Virus record (IMG/VR): IMGVR_UViG_3300035696_000002
DNA: 64,000 nt
Reading direction: 5' to 3' (one strand)
From: a virus
Taxonomy: Duplodnaviria; Heunggongvirae; Uroviricota; Caudoviricetes
Both the position numbers and the translations under genes were made by a program. Positions 13,159 through 43,627 of this stretch are shown here, piece by piece. Below the pieces are notes generated by a model. The model ran no database searches and had not been told where the DNA came from. It saw only the letters and a list, made by a program, of their open reading frames with translations. The first letter of the stretch is position 1. Every line of letters starts with the position of its first letter.

Positions 13159-14933
13159 GTAACCCAATGGAAAGCTTAATCCGGGCCTACATCGCGTGTG
13201 GTGGAGACCCAAACGACCTGCTACAAAGCCTTCAAGAGGCACCGCCTCCGCTGGCTGAGGATGAAGCCCGCTTTTTCAAGCAGTACGAAGACGAAATGGG
13301 TCAATAATGCCACTACCAGCGGGACGCGAATCCGAGTACATCGAAGACCGGGATCGGGAGATGAACGAACGGCACATGAAGACCTGCACCTATGTCGGGT
13401 GCTCCGTATGCCGATTGATCCGGGGAGAATGCGACTACTTCGATCCGCACTTTGAGAAGCGGGAGAATGGCGGTTTCCTGTGAAGGACAAAGCACTGCTT
13501 GCCAGACGAACTGTGCTCAAGATCGCGGAGTTCCCGGAAGAGTTTACTCGTCTGCTCCTCGAAAACATCGGCACGGACGCCACGGAAGACTTCATGGATC
13601 AGATGTACCGTATCTGGAGCGACGAGGGCTGCCACAAATGACCAAGTACGATGAGCCCGCGATGGCTCTGTGTGAAACGGTCACGATACGGGGAGGGCAG
13701 GTCTTGCACCTTGCCGAGAAAGGGAAGTCCGTCACCACCTGTGGCTCACCTGTCTCCCGTCGCACTTGGTTCGCACGCTATGCCCCGGCGACCGGGTGCA
13801 GTGCTTGTTTGGTCGCTGCGTGGGAACTATTGCCTGAATTCAGAAATCGGTTCAACACAAAATGATACGGAACGAACCACCACAATTCATGGCGAAGATG
13901 GAGACCGTTTTTCAGGCTGCTAAAAAGCAGGCGAAAAAACGGAAATGGGTCGATCCAGTCTACATGTACTACGACCGTCCGAAAGATTACGCCGACATTC
14001 GACGCATCAATCGGCTGCTCGCCCCCCACAACATGGTGTTCAAGACGTTTTCAGGCCGGGGGCAGTGGCGTAGACTGGGCCTGCTGGTTGCCATTGATCC
14101 GACCAAACTTCCGGCCCGAGATTGGTGTGGAATCGCCGACGAGATCATTTGTGAAAACAACGGTGGTGCCCAATAATGCTTTTCTTCCTGTGGATGGTAG
14201 TTTGGATCGGTGGGACGTGTGGTTGGGGTGAGCACAACGGAGCCTTGGCCGCAATCGCCTACTTCATCCTTTTCCCATTCGGGAGCCTGTGCATAAACTA
14301 TGCCTTTCGGAGATGGTCATGAACCCGTTTGAGAAAGTAGTTTTGAACCCATTCGAGAAGTGGGTGTCGGTGAACTTCACTGGGGTGGAGATGCCCGATC
14401 CGCCCGAGGACTGGGATCGCCAGAACGAGTTTTTCTACCTGATCGACGGCAAGCAGTATCGGATTCCGTTCGCCCGCGTGCCGGAAGAATTCAAAGCCAT
14501 CACCCTATTGGCCCGGATGGTGTCATGAATCCGTGGAACCCGCTCGCCACTACGCCCGACAGTAAACCACTCCGCTCTGGTGACTGTTGCATGGAAGCCT
14601 GTATTCACCTAATCACAGATGATCGCGGTGAGGTTCATTCTTATCCCGGCGTCAAAGGTTGGTGCGACTGTTGGTGCCATGAACGTTACTATGCCCAGAT
14701 GCGAAAGCGAGCCCACTTTGCTTGAACCACACCTGCAACATTCTGATCGACCTTTCTGAGGAGTGCGGCAAGCCTGCCGTCATGTGGATTGATGAGGAGG
14801 GGTGTTGCCCGGCCCACGTCCAGAAAACCTACTACTGTGCGAAGCACTGGGATGAATACTGCGACGGGAAGTACGGGTGTGTCTGGAGCATCCGCAACGG
14901 CGGGTTCCCGTGCTACTCCACAAAAACCGTCTA

Positions 14934-14963
14934 TTGACAATTTCTCGACTTTCCGGGTATTAT
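14934..14963 (+). promoter_or_regulatory. Sigma70-type promoter of tRNA-Ser operon
   Basis: TTGACA (14934-39), 18 nt spacer, TATTAT (14958-63). Confidence 0.8.
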
Positions 14964-14973
14964 TACAGAGAAC

Positions 14974-15054
14974 ATGAACCGCATATCCTCATTATCGTCG
15001 TCTAGTAGCTCCTTCGGGGGCTTTGGTGAGCGTGTGCGTTGGCGTGGTTGGTAA
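14974..15054 (+). CDS. Ser-rich attenuator leader peptide MNRISSLSSSSSSFGGFGERVRWRGW
   Basis: 8 Ser in 9 codons using all six Ser codons; lies between promoter and terminator upstream of four tRNA-Ser genes. Confidence 0.85.
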   Translation: MNRISSLSSSSSSFGGFGERVRWRGW

Positions 15055-15078
15055 GACACCCAAAGACATCGCAGTCCG

Positions 15079-15105
15079 AAGCCGCCTGAAAAGGGCGGCT
15101 TTTTT
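15079..15105 (+). terminator. Attenuator terminator upstream of tRNA-Ser cluster
   Basis: AAGCCGCC-TGAAAAG-GGCGGCTT plus T run. Confidence 0.88.
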
Positions 15106-15117
15106 ATTGGTTTTCAT

Positions 15118-15207
15118 GGAGAGTTGGGCGAGTGGCTTATGCCGTCTGGTTGCTAACCAGATGCCCCTTAACCGGGGCCGGGGGTTCGAATCCCTCACTC
15201 TCCGCCA
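15118..15207 (+). tRNA. tRNA-Ser(GCT)
   Basis: Cloverleaf, loop TTGCTAA, long variable arm, GTTCGAAT, GCCA end. Confidence 0.95.
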
Positions 15208-15211
15208 TCTT

Positions 15212-15303
15212 GGTGAGTTGGGAGAGTGGTTTATTCCAGCAGCTTGGAAAGCTGCCGCACTCCGCAAGGGGTGCCGGGGGTTCGAATCCCTCACTCACCG
15301 CCA
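15212..15303 (+). tRNA. tRNA-Ser(GGA)
   Basis: Loop TTGGAAA, long variable arm, GCCA end. Confidence 0.95.
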
Positions 15304-15470
15304 GTTCGATTGTTCTGTATGGTGAATTTGCCCCTACAGGGCAAAGGTTGGATACAAAAAGCAAGGGGCCGGGTACATGAAACCCCGGCCTCGCGTGCTA
15401 CGGCAGCGGGACATTTATGAGGTCTGTCTATGCCGCGTGATCCTGACCTGAATAGTAATACCGGATTTTT

Positions 15471-15563
15471 GGAGGGTTTGGTACATTGGCAAGTCCGGCT
15501 GCCTTGAAAGCAGTTATACGCCTAACCCGCGTATTGGGGGTTCGACTCCCTCACCCTCCGCCA
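15471..15563 (+). tRNA. tRNA-Ser(TGA)
   Basis: Loop CTTGAAA, long variable arm, GCCA end. Confidence 0.93.
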
Positions 15564-15673
15564 TTTTGAGTCACCCGATTTTGGGTGACAAACGCAAAGT
15601 CAGCCTATTTTGGGTGACAAGCTTAAAACGTTGACATTGCCAGAATCAAGCTTAAAAGCTTGACAACGAATTT

Positions 15674-15769
15674 GGAGAGGTTGGTACATGTGGCAAGTCC
15701 GCTCGCCTCGAAAGCGAGTCACGGGGTTAACCACCCCGTGTGCAGGTTCGACTCCTGTCCTCTCCGCCA
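15674..15769 (+). tRNA. tRNA-Ser(CGA)
   Basis: CTCGC-CTCGAAA-GCGAG, long variable arm, GCCA end. Confidence 0.93.
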
Positions 15770-16314
15770 TTTTTGCAGTATTATTGTTGTATGACCGAAA
15801 AAGAGTTGTTCGAGAAAGTTCAGGCCTACAACGATAAGCTGAAAGAGTACGGGTCGCGTAAACAGCTTCATACGTCGTTGGGCACCACTTTCCCAGAAGA
15901 GAAGCAGTTCCGCGAAGAGATCGACAAGCTCCTGAAAGAGATCGCCATGGAGTTTGTGCGGCAACGCGAGATCGCGAGGGCTGAAGGTGCCTGAACGAAT
16001 TTGCGAAGTGAACATGTATCGCGGGACTGGCGAATTTCTCGGCCAAGATTGGACGGACGGCATGCACGGGCCGATGTCAAATGTCCGGTCAGAGAAGAAC
16101 AAAATCGGATGCTTCAATCCGGCCCGCTGGCTGAATCCGTTCTACGATCCCGAGGGCACCAGATTTAGATCGGTGTGGGACGACGATTCTGATGTTTCAC
16201 TCCCCATCACTGGGGGTTATAATTACGCCCAGTGGCTCTGCACGGAGCACTATGACGAGGTTATCGTCATGGCAAAGGAAGACGAAGAGATCGACCGCGT
16301 GCGTAGGGGAATTG

Positions 16315-16569
16315 ATGAGGATTAAGGTCGTTTACCGAAAGAACCTAAAGATGTCGCCCGGCAAGCTGGCGGCTCAGACTGGACACGCTGTACTGGGGCT
16401 CAATGGGGCCTACGCTTCGATGTCGATTGTGGTGCTCGAAGCGAGTGACAAGAAGTTTCAGGAAACGAAGGCGGCTCACCCCGAGGCCTGTGTGGTTCGG
16501 GACGCTGGCCGAACAGAAGTTGCACCCGGTACCGAAACGGTGCTGGCTTACTTTGAGGATGGTCAATGA
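16315..16569 (+). CDS. pth2: Peptidyl-tRNA hydrolase, Pth2 family (compact)
   Basis: LKMSPGKLAAQTGHA and VRDAGRTEVAPGTET motifs. Confidence 0.9.
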   Translation: MRIKVVYRKNLKMSPGKLAAQTGHAVLGLNGAYASMSIVVLEASDKKFQETKAAHPEACVVRDAGRTEVAPGTETVLAYFEDGQ

Positions 16570-16651
16570 AGTTATACGACCGATTATATCCGCATCGCAT
16601 GTGGATCATGCTTGGGTTTTTGATATGCATGTGGATCGCAACTGAATACAT

Positions 16652-16728
16652 GCTCCGGTGATGCAATAGGCAGACATCCTCCACTTAAAACGGAGGTTTT
16701 GAGAGTTCGATTCTCTCCCGGAGTACCA
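16652..16728 (+). tRNA. tRNA-Leu(TAA), short variable loop
   Basis: Acceptor GCTCCGG/CCGGAGT-ACCA, loop CTTAAAA, GTTCGATT T-loop. Confidence 0.8.
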
Positions 16729-16731
16729 AAT

Positions 16732-16826
16732 GGGGGAGAGCACGGGTGTGCGGGCGGGATTTATAACCCTGTAATTGCTCCTGATTAGAGTGCACGGTGT
16801 GAGTTCGAGTCTCCACTCCCCTACCA
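16732..16826 (+). tRNA. Atypical tRNA, anticodon TAT (Ile-like), long variable arm
   Basis: Acceptor GGGGGAG/CTCCCCT-ACCA, loop TTTATAA, tiny D arm, bulged T stem. Confidence 0.65.
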
Positions 16827-39727: not shown

Positions 39728-39756
39728 TTGACATTTTCCGAAATACCCAGTACTAT
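39728..39756 (+). promoter_or_regulatory. Sigma70-type promoter of second tRNA region
   Basis: TTGACA, 17 nt spacer, TACTAT. Confidence 0.85.
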
Positions 39757-39793
39757 ACAGAGAGTCAGCAAACTGCTGGCCCGAGACACTACC

Positions 39794-39892
39794 ATGACCT
39801 CAATGAAACATAATACGGTCGCACGAAAGCAGTGGCGGAATCGTCGCCACGACGGCGTTGGTCTGTCCTCGGACACGGAGTTTGGGAAGTAA
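39794..39892 (+). CDS. Attenuator leader peptide MTSMKHNTVARKQWRNRRHDGVGLSSDTEFGK
   Basis: Short ORF between promoter and terminator; K/H/N/R/Q/W codons match downstream tRNAs; alternative start 39803. Confidence 0.8.
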   Translation: MTSMKHNTVARKQWRNRRHDGVGLSSDTEFGK

Positions 39893-39924
39893 ACAAAGCA
39901 ACCAAACCCAAAACGAGAGCAAAC

Positions 39925-39958
39925 AGACCCGCCAAAAACTGGCGGGTTTTGCATTTTT
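39925..39958 (+). terminator. Attenuator terminator upstream of tRNA-Trp
   Basis: ACCCGCCA-AAAAC-TGGCGGGT followed by TTTGCATTTTT. Confidence 0.85.
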
Positions 39959-39971
39959 AGTGGGAAAATTC

Positions 39972-40064: not shown

Positions 40065-40692
40065 ATGGAATTGAAGATTGAACAGCAGACGCGAGGCACC
40101 CGCATCCTGCGGGGGGAGTCAGCTACCCGGAGGCGACTTCATCTCATCTAGTCTCGCAACAGCAGCGACGGCAGCCGGGTACGAGGAAATCGTACTCCCG
40201 TCGCTAGAGCCAGCCGCTCTCTACGCTGAAAAGGCTGGCCCTGAGATTCTGGGACAGATGTACTGCTTCCCGGACAAGAAAGGCAGGCAGTTGTGCCTGC
40301 GACCGGAAGGAACGGCGACCTGTCAGATACTCGCCGACACGGTAATGAAAATGGAGCGAGACGTGAAGCTCTGGTATCTGACGACCTGTTGGCGTTACGA
40401 ACGACCACAGGCTGGGCGGTACCGGGAGTTCACACAGTTCGGGGTGGAAATCCTGAACCCACGCGGCCCCGTCCGGGATGAGTTAGTGGCTTTGGCCGAA
40501 AGCATGGTGCGGCAGTTCACGGATCAGTATGAAGTGAACGCGGCAGTCAAGCGGGGGCTGGCCTACTACGTCGAGGATGGCTTCGAAATCAGTTGCCCGG
40601 CACTGGGGGCTCAGAAGCAAGTCTGCGGCGGCGGTTCATACAAGCAAGGCTGCGGTTTCGCAATTGGGGTAGATCGCATGATGCTTGTGTGA
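40065..40692 (+). CDS. Histidyl-tRNA synthetase catalytic-core-only protein, split by +1 frameshift near 40137-40142
   Basis: RGTR N-terminal motif in frame of ATG 40065; LRPEGT, WRYERPQAGRYREFTQFGVE, RGLAYY, GGGSY, GFAIGVDR in the +1 frame; no anticodon-binding domain. Confidence 0.85.
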
Positions 40693-41679: not shown

Positions 41680-41766
41680 TGGGATGTAGAGCGTAATTGG
41701 TAGCGTGCACGGCTGTTAACCGTGTGTCGAAAGACCTTGTAGGTTCGAGCCCTACCGTCCCAGCCA
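41680..41766 (+). tRNA. tRNA-Asn(GTT) with extra variable hairpin
   Basis: CACGG-CTGTTAA-CCGTG, GTC-GAAA-GAC variable arm, GCCA end. Confidence 0.85.
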
Positions 41767-41783
41767 AATTCATAGGAGGCGTT

Positions 41784-42038
41784 ATAGGCAAACAGAAGGA
41801 AGTGAAATTCAGCGTCAGGGTCAGCGACCATGACTACGGTTACAGAGTCGAGCAGGTGAAGCGATTTCTGGCCAAGAAGCATAGTGTTTTGGCTGTGGTG
41901 CAGTTTAAGGGGCGTGAGATCACACATCCCGAACTTGGGCAAGAGTTGTTGGCCCGGCTGCTAACCGATCTGGGGAGAAACGGAACTCCCGTCCTGAAGG
42001 GACGATCACTTCAAGTTCTGATTACGCCTAAGAGTTGA
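41784..42038 (+). CDS. infC: Translation initiation factor IF3 C-terminal domain, probable ATA start
   Basis: KEVKFSVRVSDHD...RFL...VQFKGREITHPELG; AGGAGG followed by in-frame ATA. Confidence 0.8.
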   Translation: MGKQKEVKFSVRVSDHDYGYRVEQVKRFLAKKHSVLAVVQFKGREITHPELGQELLARLLTDLGRNGTPVLKGRSLQVLITPKS

Positions 42039-42560: not shown

Positions 42561-42628
42561 GGGGGCGTAGCTCAATGGTAGAGCAGCCCACACAAGGGAA
42601 GATGCGGGTTCGAGTCCCGCCGCCCCCA
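42561..42628 (+). pseudogene. tRNA-like element with truncated anticodon arm
   Basis: GGGGGCG/CGCCCCC acceptor, canonical D and T arms, CCC-ACACAA-GGG arm, no CCA. Confidence 0.6.
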
Positions 42629-42814: not shown

Positions 42815-43627
42815 ATGTTGCATCACGTAATTCAGAAGGACATGTTTCACGAGTTCGGGTTTCATACTCTGATTCGTGCGATGGAAGAAAACGAAGTCCC
42901 GTATTGCGTGGTGAAGATCATCCCGTTCAGTCATGAACTGACGTGGGAGTCAGGTGTGCCGCTGCCGGAGAGCACGGTGCCGACAATGATCTGGGGCATG
43001 ACCTGTGTTGAGGAAGTCGCCGGAGTAAGACAATGGACGCCCGGCGTGTTCAAGAACGAGAATTTCGATTTGCGTGTGATCGGCGAGAGGTACGGCGAGA
43101 ACATGCTGAATGCCGACGCGAAGTTTTGCAGGCTGGGGGATATTCCAGCGTTTGAGGGATCGGCATTCATTCGCCCGGTACACGACACAAAGTCGTTTAC
43201 CGGAGCCCTTATCAATGGCGAAGACCTGCGAACTTGGCAGGATCAGCTAATGCAGTTGAAGGGTGAGTTCACGACGTTGAGTCTGGACACCCCGGTGCTG
43301 TACGCCAGCCCGAAGAAGATTGATACTGAGTGTCGCTTCTTTGTGGTGGATGGAAAAGTTATCACTGGTAGTTCGTATCGGGTTAACGGTAGAGTATTAT
43401 ACAAGAGGGTGAACGCCGACAACCCGATGTGCATCCCCCTGAGGGAGTTTGCACAGAGAATGGTTGACCAGTGGCAACCTGTTGAAGCATTCGTGATCGA
43501 CATCGGACGAGTCGGCCAAGAATGCAAAGTGATCGAGATCAACTGCTTGAATTCGTCGGGGTTTTACGACTCGGACATGGCGGCGGTGGTCAGGGCGATC
43601 ACGAATTTACCAAGTTTGGATCGGTAG
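42815..43627 (+). CDS. ATP-grasp domain protein (DUF4343/R2K-like)
   Basis: FIRPVHDTKSFTG, ECRFFVVDGKVI, FVIDIG, IEINCLNSSGFY. Confidence 0.8.
   Translation: MLHHVIQKDMFHEFGFHTLIRAMEENEVPYCVVKIIPFSHELTWESGVPLPESTVPTMIWGMTCVEEVAGVRQWTPGVFKNENFDLRVIGERYGENMLNADAKFCRLGDIPAFEGSAFIRPVHDTKSFTGALINGEDLRTWQDQLMQLKGEFTTLSLDTPVLYASPKKIDTECRFFVVDGKVITGSSYRVNGRVLYKRVNADNPMCIPLREFAQRMVDQWQPVEAFVIDIGRVGQECKVIEINCLNSSGFYDSDMAAVVRAITNLPSLDR

Follow-up and report, generated by a model that had tools for sequence, protein, structure and literature searches.

Putative leader-peptide attenuators matched to the codons of downstream tRNA gene blocks in a huge phage genome

RESULTS

A serine-rich leader and an intrinsic terminator precede the only tRNA-Ser genes of the phage

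We analyzed a window of 64,000 nucleotides corresponding to bases 47749–111748 of a 463,033-bp IMG/VR virus record, from an uncultured phage, with a G+C content of 55%; window coordinates are accordingly genome coordinates minus 47748. ARAGORN detected 69 tRNA genes and one tmRNA gene in the full record. Just four of these 69 are tRNA-Ser genes, and all four are located behind an element designated here as leader A (Table 1). A first-pass annotation of this DNA had described a promoter, a 26-codon open reading frame (ORF) using all six Ser codons, a terminator and the four tRNA-Ser genes at this locus, and all of these were confirmed at the coordinates given there.

Table 1. Features of leader A, the sister leaders and the leaders of related phages (window coordinates unless otherwise indicated)
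Feature	Position	Strand	Remarks
Sigma-70-type promoter, leader A	14934–14963	+	TTGACA 14934–14939, 18-nt spacer, TATTAT 14958–14963
Leader A ORF	14974–15054	+	ATG at 14974; 26 codons, then TAA
Regulatory codon run, leader A	14986–15012	+	Codons 5–13: eight Ser codons and one TTA (14992–14994)
Region 1 (protector)	15001–15014	+	Spans the last four Ser codons; pairs with region 2 (duplex –12.4 kcal/mol)
Region 2	15015–15027	+	G-rich Gly/Phe codons; partner is region 1 or region 3
Region 3	15074–15087	+	Terminator 5΄ arm and 4 nt upstream
Intrinsic terminator, leader A	15078–15108	+	Hairpin 15078–15102, 10 pairs (6 G-C); T run to 15108
tRNA-Ser (GCU)	15118–15207	+	Rfam tRNA, 55.5 bits
tRNA-Ser (GGA)	15212–15303	+	tRNA scan and Rfam
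tRNA-Ser (UGA)	15471–15563	+	tRNA scan and Rfam
tRNA-Ser (CGA)	15674–15769	+	tRNA scan and Rfam
tRNA-Leu (UAA)	16652–16728	+	Sole TTA reader in the genome; ~900 nt beyond the Ser genes
Translation-related genes in tRNA islands	16315–16569, 40078–40692, 41697–42038, 42815–43627		
Leader A, ORF start	Genome 62722 (window 14974)	+	Block: Ser x4, then Leu (UAA)
Leader B, ORF start	Genome 87542 (window 39794)	+	Block: Trp, His, four CGN-reading Arg, Asn, Gln, Cys, Lys
Leader B attenuator	39728–39960	+	Promoter 39728–39756, 32-codon leader 39794–39892, terminator 39925–39949
Leader C, ORF start	Genome 237426	–	Block: Ile, Thr x3, Gln x3
Leader D, ORF start	Genome 304156	+	Block: Val, Gly, Ala, Asp, Cys, Glu
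Leader E, ORF start	Genome 340945	+	Block: Tyr, Leu x4, Phe
Leader F, ORF start	Genome 345941	+	Block: Pro x4, Gln, Met x3, Phe x2
Leader in relative L011	3770 of that locus		Block: His/Tyr/Ser/Cys
Leader in relative L012	2063 of that locus		Block: Ser/Cys/Tyr/His
Leader in relative L014	1887 of that locus		Block: Lys/Arg/Trp/Ser/His/Phe
Leader in relative L007	3748 of that locus		Ahead of the HisRS-like gene; leader with a His run
Leader in relative L075 (LR745206.1, GenBank genome of the huge-phage study)	L075:8845		Block: His/Phe/Trp/Lys/Arg/Ser

The promoter of leader A matches the consensus at 11 of 12 positions and was the top site in a 4-kb scan. The ATG lies only 10 nt past the –10 box, leaving a 5΄ UTR of ~3–5 nt, and no canonical Shine-Dalgarno (SD) sequence is present; the leader A mRNA would therefore be nearly leaderless. 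SD-like motifs are enriched ahead of the long ORFs of this phage (39%, compared with 17% in the background).

All six Ser synonyms are used in the regulatory codon run, which also contains a cognate codon for each of the five downstream anticodons (GCU, GGA, UGA, CGA and UAA), including TTA, a codon that accounts for only 0.2% of codons in the long ORFs of the phage. When eight Ser codons were drawn according to phage usage, all six synonyms were hit 7.5% of the time. Nine-codon windows with at least seven Ser codons occur only 13 times in the six frames of the genome, and six different Ser codons are found in such a window only in leader A. In principle, a short ORF rich in Ser codons and an unremarkable terminator might precede the tRNA-Ser genes merely by coincidence: for this single locus, the chance that such a window falls, in the correct orientation, within the ~150 nt before the Ser tRNAs is ~0.002, and very many windows were scanned. 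However, the same anatomy was observed at six loci in the genome and at many in relatives, as described below, and we regard coincidence as very unlikely.

The hairpin of the terminator has a folding energy of –16.9 kcal/mol, and tRNA-Ser (GCU) begins 10 nt past the T run. Leader A thus combines a promoter-proximal ORF carrying a cluster of cognate codons with a Rho-independent terminator before the first tRNA, which are structural criteria for an attenuator. The tRNA-Leu (UAA) gene is possibly a distal member of the Ser unit. Co-transcription has not been shown, and a promoter-like site (16196–16223) and a terminator-like site (16526–16546) lie between it and the Ser tRNAs.

The terminated transcript of ~135 nt is well structured (z = –1.9), and terminated attenuator RNAs can act in trans, as does rnTrpL of Sinorhizobium (PMC6614838). 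Both points are compatible with the possibility that the short transcript or the peptide is itself the product, as an attenuator-like small RNA or a micro-protein, that the terminator merely closes that gene, and that the tRNAs are made by unregulated read-through or processing. On the other hand, there is no promoter in the short interval between the terminator and the first tRNA, no Rfam small RNA family was matched at threshold, and what is conserved among leaders is not the peptide sequence but the correspondence to the nearby tRNAs. We consider this possibility very unlikely. An Rfam search of positions 14800–16800 also detected no leader family (His_leader, Thr_leader, Leu_leader, Trp_leader or others) at E-values up to 1, and no T-box match at the leader A locus. 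A classical attenuator of amino-acid biosynthesis was consequently rejected, given also that the downstream genes are tRNAs, and a T-box riboswitch was rejected for want of a T-box match.

Some further features of the tRNA islands were recorded. The spacers between the Ser tRNAs (15304–15470 and 15564–15673) contain several hairpins and direct repeats, and each repeat carries a TTGACA without a downstream –10 box; these could be processing sites or protein-binding sites. Inside the tRNA islands are four translation-related genes (Table 1, in the order given here), which encode a peptidyl-tRNA hydrolase of the PTH2 type, a HisRS-like fragment of 204 aa limited to the catalytic core, a protein with an IF3 C-terminal domain and an R2K ATP-grasp protein. 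At positions 42561–42628, ARAGORN assigned a two-base anticodon to a tRNA-like gene with an unusual anticodon loop.

Mutually exclusive pairings predicted in leader A

The first-pass annotation had further proposed a protector hairpin at positions 15007–15022 that overlaps the last Ser codons and an antiterminator pairing between positions 15016–15026 and 15076–15086, and had likened the whole to the trpL type of attenuation. Both pairings were recovered by folding, and the likeness to trpL held, as protector, antiterminator and terminator pairings are all present, are mutually exclusive and have the regulatory codons in the protector strand. The duplex between regions 2 and 3 (the antiterminator) reached –19.2 kcal/mol, more stable than the terminator hairpin and than the pairing of regions 1 and 2, and a value equaled by only 2.3% of shuffled ORFs.

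In the minimum free energy structure of the full-length leader, regions 1 and 2 were paired and the terminator was intact. We then masked 30 nt to represent a ribosome and folded the remainder. With the A site at codons 2–11, the probability of the terminator stem was 0.01–0.43; with the A site at codons 12–25 it was 0.95–0.96, and it was 0.78–0.82 when the A site held the final sense codon or the stop codon. A masking ribosome on the Ser codons therefore flips the predicted fold to the antiterminator. In a transcript truncated ahead of the terminator 3΄ arm, region 3 paired with the G-tract of region 2. The stop codon lies 25 nt past region 2, and a ribosome at that codon leaves region 2 uncovered; consequently, and in this respect unlike trpL, the off state would need fast local re-pairing of regions 1 and 2, rather than steric blocking. 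It should be noted that equilibrium folding with a ribosome mask is only a crude stand-in for co-transcriptional kinetics.

Six leaders head tRNA blocks that match their codons

To find further leaders, we scanned the genome for short ORFs followed by a terminator and read the region upstream of every tRNA block. Six codon-matched leaders (A–F) were found, each heading a tRNA block (Table 1), and all six ORFs end in TAA. When the six leaders and six blocks were scored by the fraction of block-decodable codons, the true pairing ranked first among the 720 permutations, and a cognate codon was present in the corresponding leader for 43 of 47 distinct anticodons. For example, leader B is rich in Lys, His, Asn, Arg, Gln and Trp codons, and contains the full set of four CGN codons as well as the two codons each for His and Lys. 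Five Leu codons occur in leader E, but not TTA, which sits instead in leader A, ahead of the only tRNA-Leu (UAA). The coverage of synonyms was only modestly significant when tested statistically (P ~ 0.07 per leader).

This sampling of codons bears on the possibility that the leaders sense amino-acid starvation, namely the charging level, and tune tRNA output to the nutrient state rather than monitoring the abundance or damage of tRNAs. Stalling depends on aminoacyl-tRNA, and starvation must therefore also trigger the switch; starvation-triggered attenuation is established for trpL and hisL and was modeled in PMC1183508. However, extra tRNA gives no relief of an amino-acid shortage, and such a sensor would not need to sample synonyms and isoacceptors (six of six for Ser, four of four for CGN, the Leu codons of leader E and a TTA placed by its own tRNA), even if the modest statistics of coverage for each leader limit the weight of this argument. 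The sampling favors the sensing of tRNA species over the sensing of amino acids, and we regard a pure starvation sensor as unlikely.

We examined the wiring of those five leaders whose terminator includes a T run (A–E). Within the ORF, the segment that paired best with the 5΄ arm of the terminator was, in leaders A, B, C and E, a tract directly after the main regulatory codons that consists mostly of Gly codons, and, in leader D, codons 30–40, mainly Ser-Ser-Glu codons near the end of the ORF. These duplexes had energies of –18 to –20 kcal/mol and were each stronger than expected from shuffled sequences (P = 0.007–0.027; Fisher's combined P = 4.6e-6). The complementarity extends to nucleotides 5΄ of the terminator stem, which vary from leader to leader and do not contribute to the terminator. 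Moreover, the best upstream partner of the region 2 tract overlapped the regulatory codons in all five leaders. Equilibrium folding with the mask yielded a clear switch only in leader A, a partial or weak one in C, D and E, and none in B unless the transcript was truncated; a co-transcriptional proxy, in which the transcript was cut before the 3΄ arm, and the duplex tests were hence used in place of full-length masked folding. Leader F contains a long hairpin without a T-run terminator and may work differently.

The same hardware might follow another logic, in which active translation of the leader, and not stalling, gives read-through, so that tRNA output is coupled to overall translation and the codon match serves some other purpose. 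Such a logic is compatible with the finding that, in leader A, region 2 stays exposed when the ribosome has reached the stop codon, a state in which regions 2 and 3 can still pair according to the truncated-transcript model. However, the overlap of region 1 with the regulatory codons in all the terminator-bearing leaders, together with the release of region 2 when those codons are masked, argues for stalling; furthermore, a device for coupling needs no tRNA-matched codons, yet the match is found genome-wide and covaries across phages. We accordingly give little credence to this alternative logic.

The promoter regions of several leaders share a spacer motif. In its extended form, with no more than one mismatch, this motif is confined in the genome to leaders A, B, D and E plus the tmRNA gene; a version with two mismatches is present at leader F and at several unrelated sites. 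A palindrome of the TTCGAA type is present in the motif (14940–14957 and 39734–39750 in the window, and around 243227 on the minus strand of the genome at the tmRNA promoter). Conceivably, the motif is an operator through which one regulator acts on all of these stable-RNA genes.

On the minus strand of the genome, at 238747–239065, three amber-reading tRNAs (anticodon CUA) are accompanied by odd tRNA-like genes, which suggests suppression or recoding of TAG. In reading the region upstream of every tRNA block, we saw no leader upstream of this suppressor-tRNA block.

Leaders track differently composed tRNA blocks in related phages

The equivalent leaders that had been suggested as a check on the proposal were sought before tRNA clusters in related phages, and were found, matched to their blocks, in distant huge phages. 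Using the HisRS-like gene inside block B as a marker, we retrieved 22 IMG/VR loci (8 kb each; G+C content 22–59%) from contigs of up to 578 kb. In relatives with 41–66% identity in this marker, the tRNA blocks are differently composed, and the leaders match their own blocks (Table 1). On the 578-kb contig (G002), matched leaders were observed before the Thr, Cys/His/Ser/Tyr, Lys/Leu/Met/Arg/Trp and nine-amino-acid blocks, and on an 82-kb contig (G001) before both large blocks, each with 12 of 12 codons matched in the best window. Two tandem terminators follow the leader ORF in two of the relatives (L011:3770–3960 and L012:2063–2290).

Because picking the best upstream ORF biases the score, the null distribution was obtained by applying, for each amino-acid set, the same best-ORF choice to 600 random regions of 900 nt. 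Against this null, the match between leader and block had P ≤ 0.03 in 12 of 16 blocks, and the match pooled over 15 blocks was strongly supported (combined P = 5.5e-13). The block of leader C (Ile/Thr/Gln) was left out of the pool, as clustering had merged it with the suppressor-tRNA block and the leader fell inside the cluster. The region 2 design was present in six of the seven relatives tested (combined P = 3e-7). Leaders in distant huge phages with G+C contents from 28 to 59% hence track differing tRNA blocks with the same wiring.

One cultured relative, Sinorhizobium phage Phosso (L074, PV764938.1 417500–462500), has 49% identity in the HisRS-like marker. Its 59 tRNAs form an array that is not sorted by amino acid, and no codon-matched leader was found at the array head, although a structured region of ~400 nt lies ahead of the first tRNA. 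The system thus accompanies sorted blocks and not the whole phage clade. Phosso is not an obvious candidate for a bench model.

Several searches for a direct ortholog of leader A were unsuccessful. An exact search of the Ser-codon run in IMG/VR gave no match, a blastn comparison of the locus with cultured and GenBank phages hit nothing but tRNA-Ser genes, and the proteins encoded on either side of the Ser block led to no useful relatives. Relatives of the PTH2 gene were rejected as a source of orthologs, as they belong to unrelated low-GC phages; one of these (L002:2780–3990) contains long tRNA-like genes that are apparently interrupted by insertions. Since no direct ortholog was found, base-pair covariation within one orthologous family is not available.

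DISCUSSION

In this study, we observed in silico the anatomy of leader A, its alternative pairings and their energetics, the match between codons and anticodons, its recurrence in the genome and the covariation of leaders with blocks across phages. We consider it likely that leader A acts as a transcription attenuator of the ribosome-mediated, leader-peptide type, with the tRNA-Ser genes of the phage itself as its output. Translation of the leader ORF, the direction of the switch from stalling to read-through, and the size of the switch are inferred, as there are no RNA or ribosome data. The natural trigger is likewise an inference: we take it to be the loss of tRNAs, for example to host anticodon nucleases, rather than amino-acid starvation.

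In the proposed mechanism, which is modeled on the predicted pairings, transcription would start at the promoter, and a ribosome would load on the almost leaderless ATG. If Ser-tRNA of any isoacceptor or Leu-tRNA (UAA) were scarce, the ribosome would stall within positions 14986–15006 and cover region 1. The G-tract of region 2 would thereby become available to the terminator 5΄ arm as this arm emerged, the two would pair, no terminator would form, and the polymerase would enter the four tRNA-Ser genes. With fast decoding, or without translation, regions 1 and 2 would re-pair locally, the terminator would form, and transcription would stop at position ~15108. Because the products are the molecules that are sensed, and would speed the decoding of the leader, the circuit would be a self-limiting homeostat for tRNA supply with negative feedback. 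As part of the same proposal, at least six such circuits would together gate most of the 69 tRNA genes, and each tRNA set is probably produced only while decoding of the matching codons is slow. The first-pass interpretation, in which the phage senses a shortage of any Ser isoacceptor and transcribes replacement tRNAs on demand, is thus supported in silico.

The leaders of enterobacterial operons (trpL, hisL, thrL, leuL and pheL) likewise consist of a promoter-proximal short ORF with regulatory codons, exclusive pairings between regions 1:2, 2:3 and 3:4, and a terminator before the first gene, and the sister leaders, which serve several amino acids, resemble the multivalent leader of ilvGMEDA. 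The evidence best supports the view that a known mechanism, leader-peptide attenuation, is here turned onto tRNA genes, unlike in the leaders of the trp, his, thr, leu and ilv operons. In contrast to the enterobacterial elements, the phage element would regulate tRNA genes and not biosynthetic enzymes, so that the sensed molecule is the product; its codons sample all synonyms and isoacceptors; its mRNA is nearly leaderless; its stop codon lies well past region 2; and it resides in a phage genome, where it is repeated for nearly every tRNA block.

Leader-type attenuation also controls the synthetase genes of the pheST operon (pheM) through the decoding of cognate codons, and comparable controls act on other aminoacyl-tRNA synthetase genes. 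The phage leaders have in common with pheST the attenuation of a component of the translation apparatus, but the latter belongs to a cellular genome and targets a synthetase protein, not tRNA, with only one amino acid involved. T-box elements similarly use antitermination to report the state of one tRNA species; however, their specifier codon and T-box sequence make direct contact with the uncharged tRNA, and no translation is needed, whereas the phage element contains an ORF.

The statement in the first-pass annotation that attenuation was not known to it for tRNA arrays stands, in that literature searches found no such description. In these searches, whose coverage excluded most subscription journals, nothing was found on demand-sensing control of phage tRNA transcription, nor on leader peptides that control tRNA genes, whether phage or cellular. 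The words attenuator, leader and terminator are absent from the huge-phage genome paper that is the source of LR745206.1 (PMC7162821). As far as the available portions of two other papers indicate, phage tRNAs replace host tRNAs that have been depleted by tRNA-cleaving host defenses (PMC11555353, PMC11464382). Within those same limits, these papers address what phage tRNAs do, which supplies a biological rationale for the phage leaders, and they make the loss of tRNAs a plausible trigger.

Taken more broadly, the results lead us to favor, with less assurance than the mechanism of leader A itself, the idea that huge phages run a genome-wide tRNA homeostat, in which block-wise leaders gauge the decoding speed of each codon family with isoacceptor resolution, and each block is transcribed only when its tRNAs are limiting, for example upon host shut-off or attack by anticodon nucleases. 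If true, this would be the first leader-peptide attenuation of tRNA genes and the first case of a virus that monitors the tRNA pool of its host. The elements are compact (~170 nt) and modular sensors of decoding speed for chosen codons, which could serve as reporters, and the leaders provide a simple sequence signature that predicts the tRNAs behind an incomplete contig.

To our knowledge, the regulation of phage tRNA genes is essentially unknown, and the reason why huge phages carry near-complete tRNA sets is debated. A demand-driven switch for each codon family would make the supply of tRNAs a regulated and sensed quantity during infection. Such a switch would explain why the tRNA genes of these phages are sorted by amino acid, and would link tRNA arrays mechanistically to the depletion of host tRNAs and to defenses that target tRNAs.
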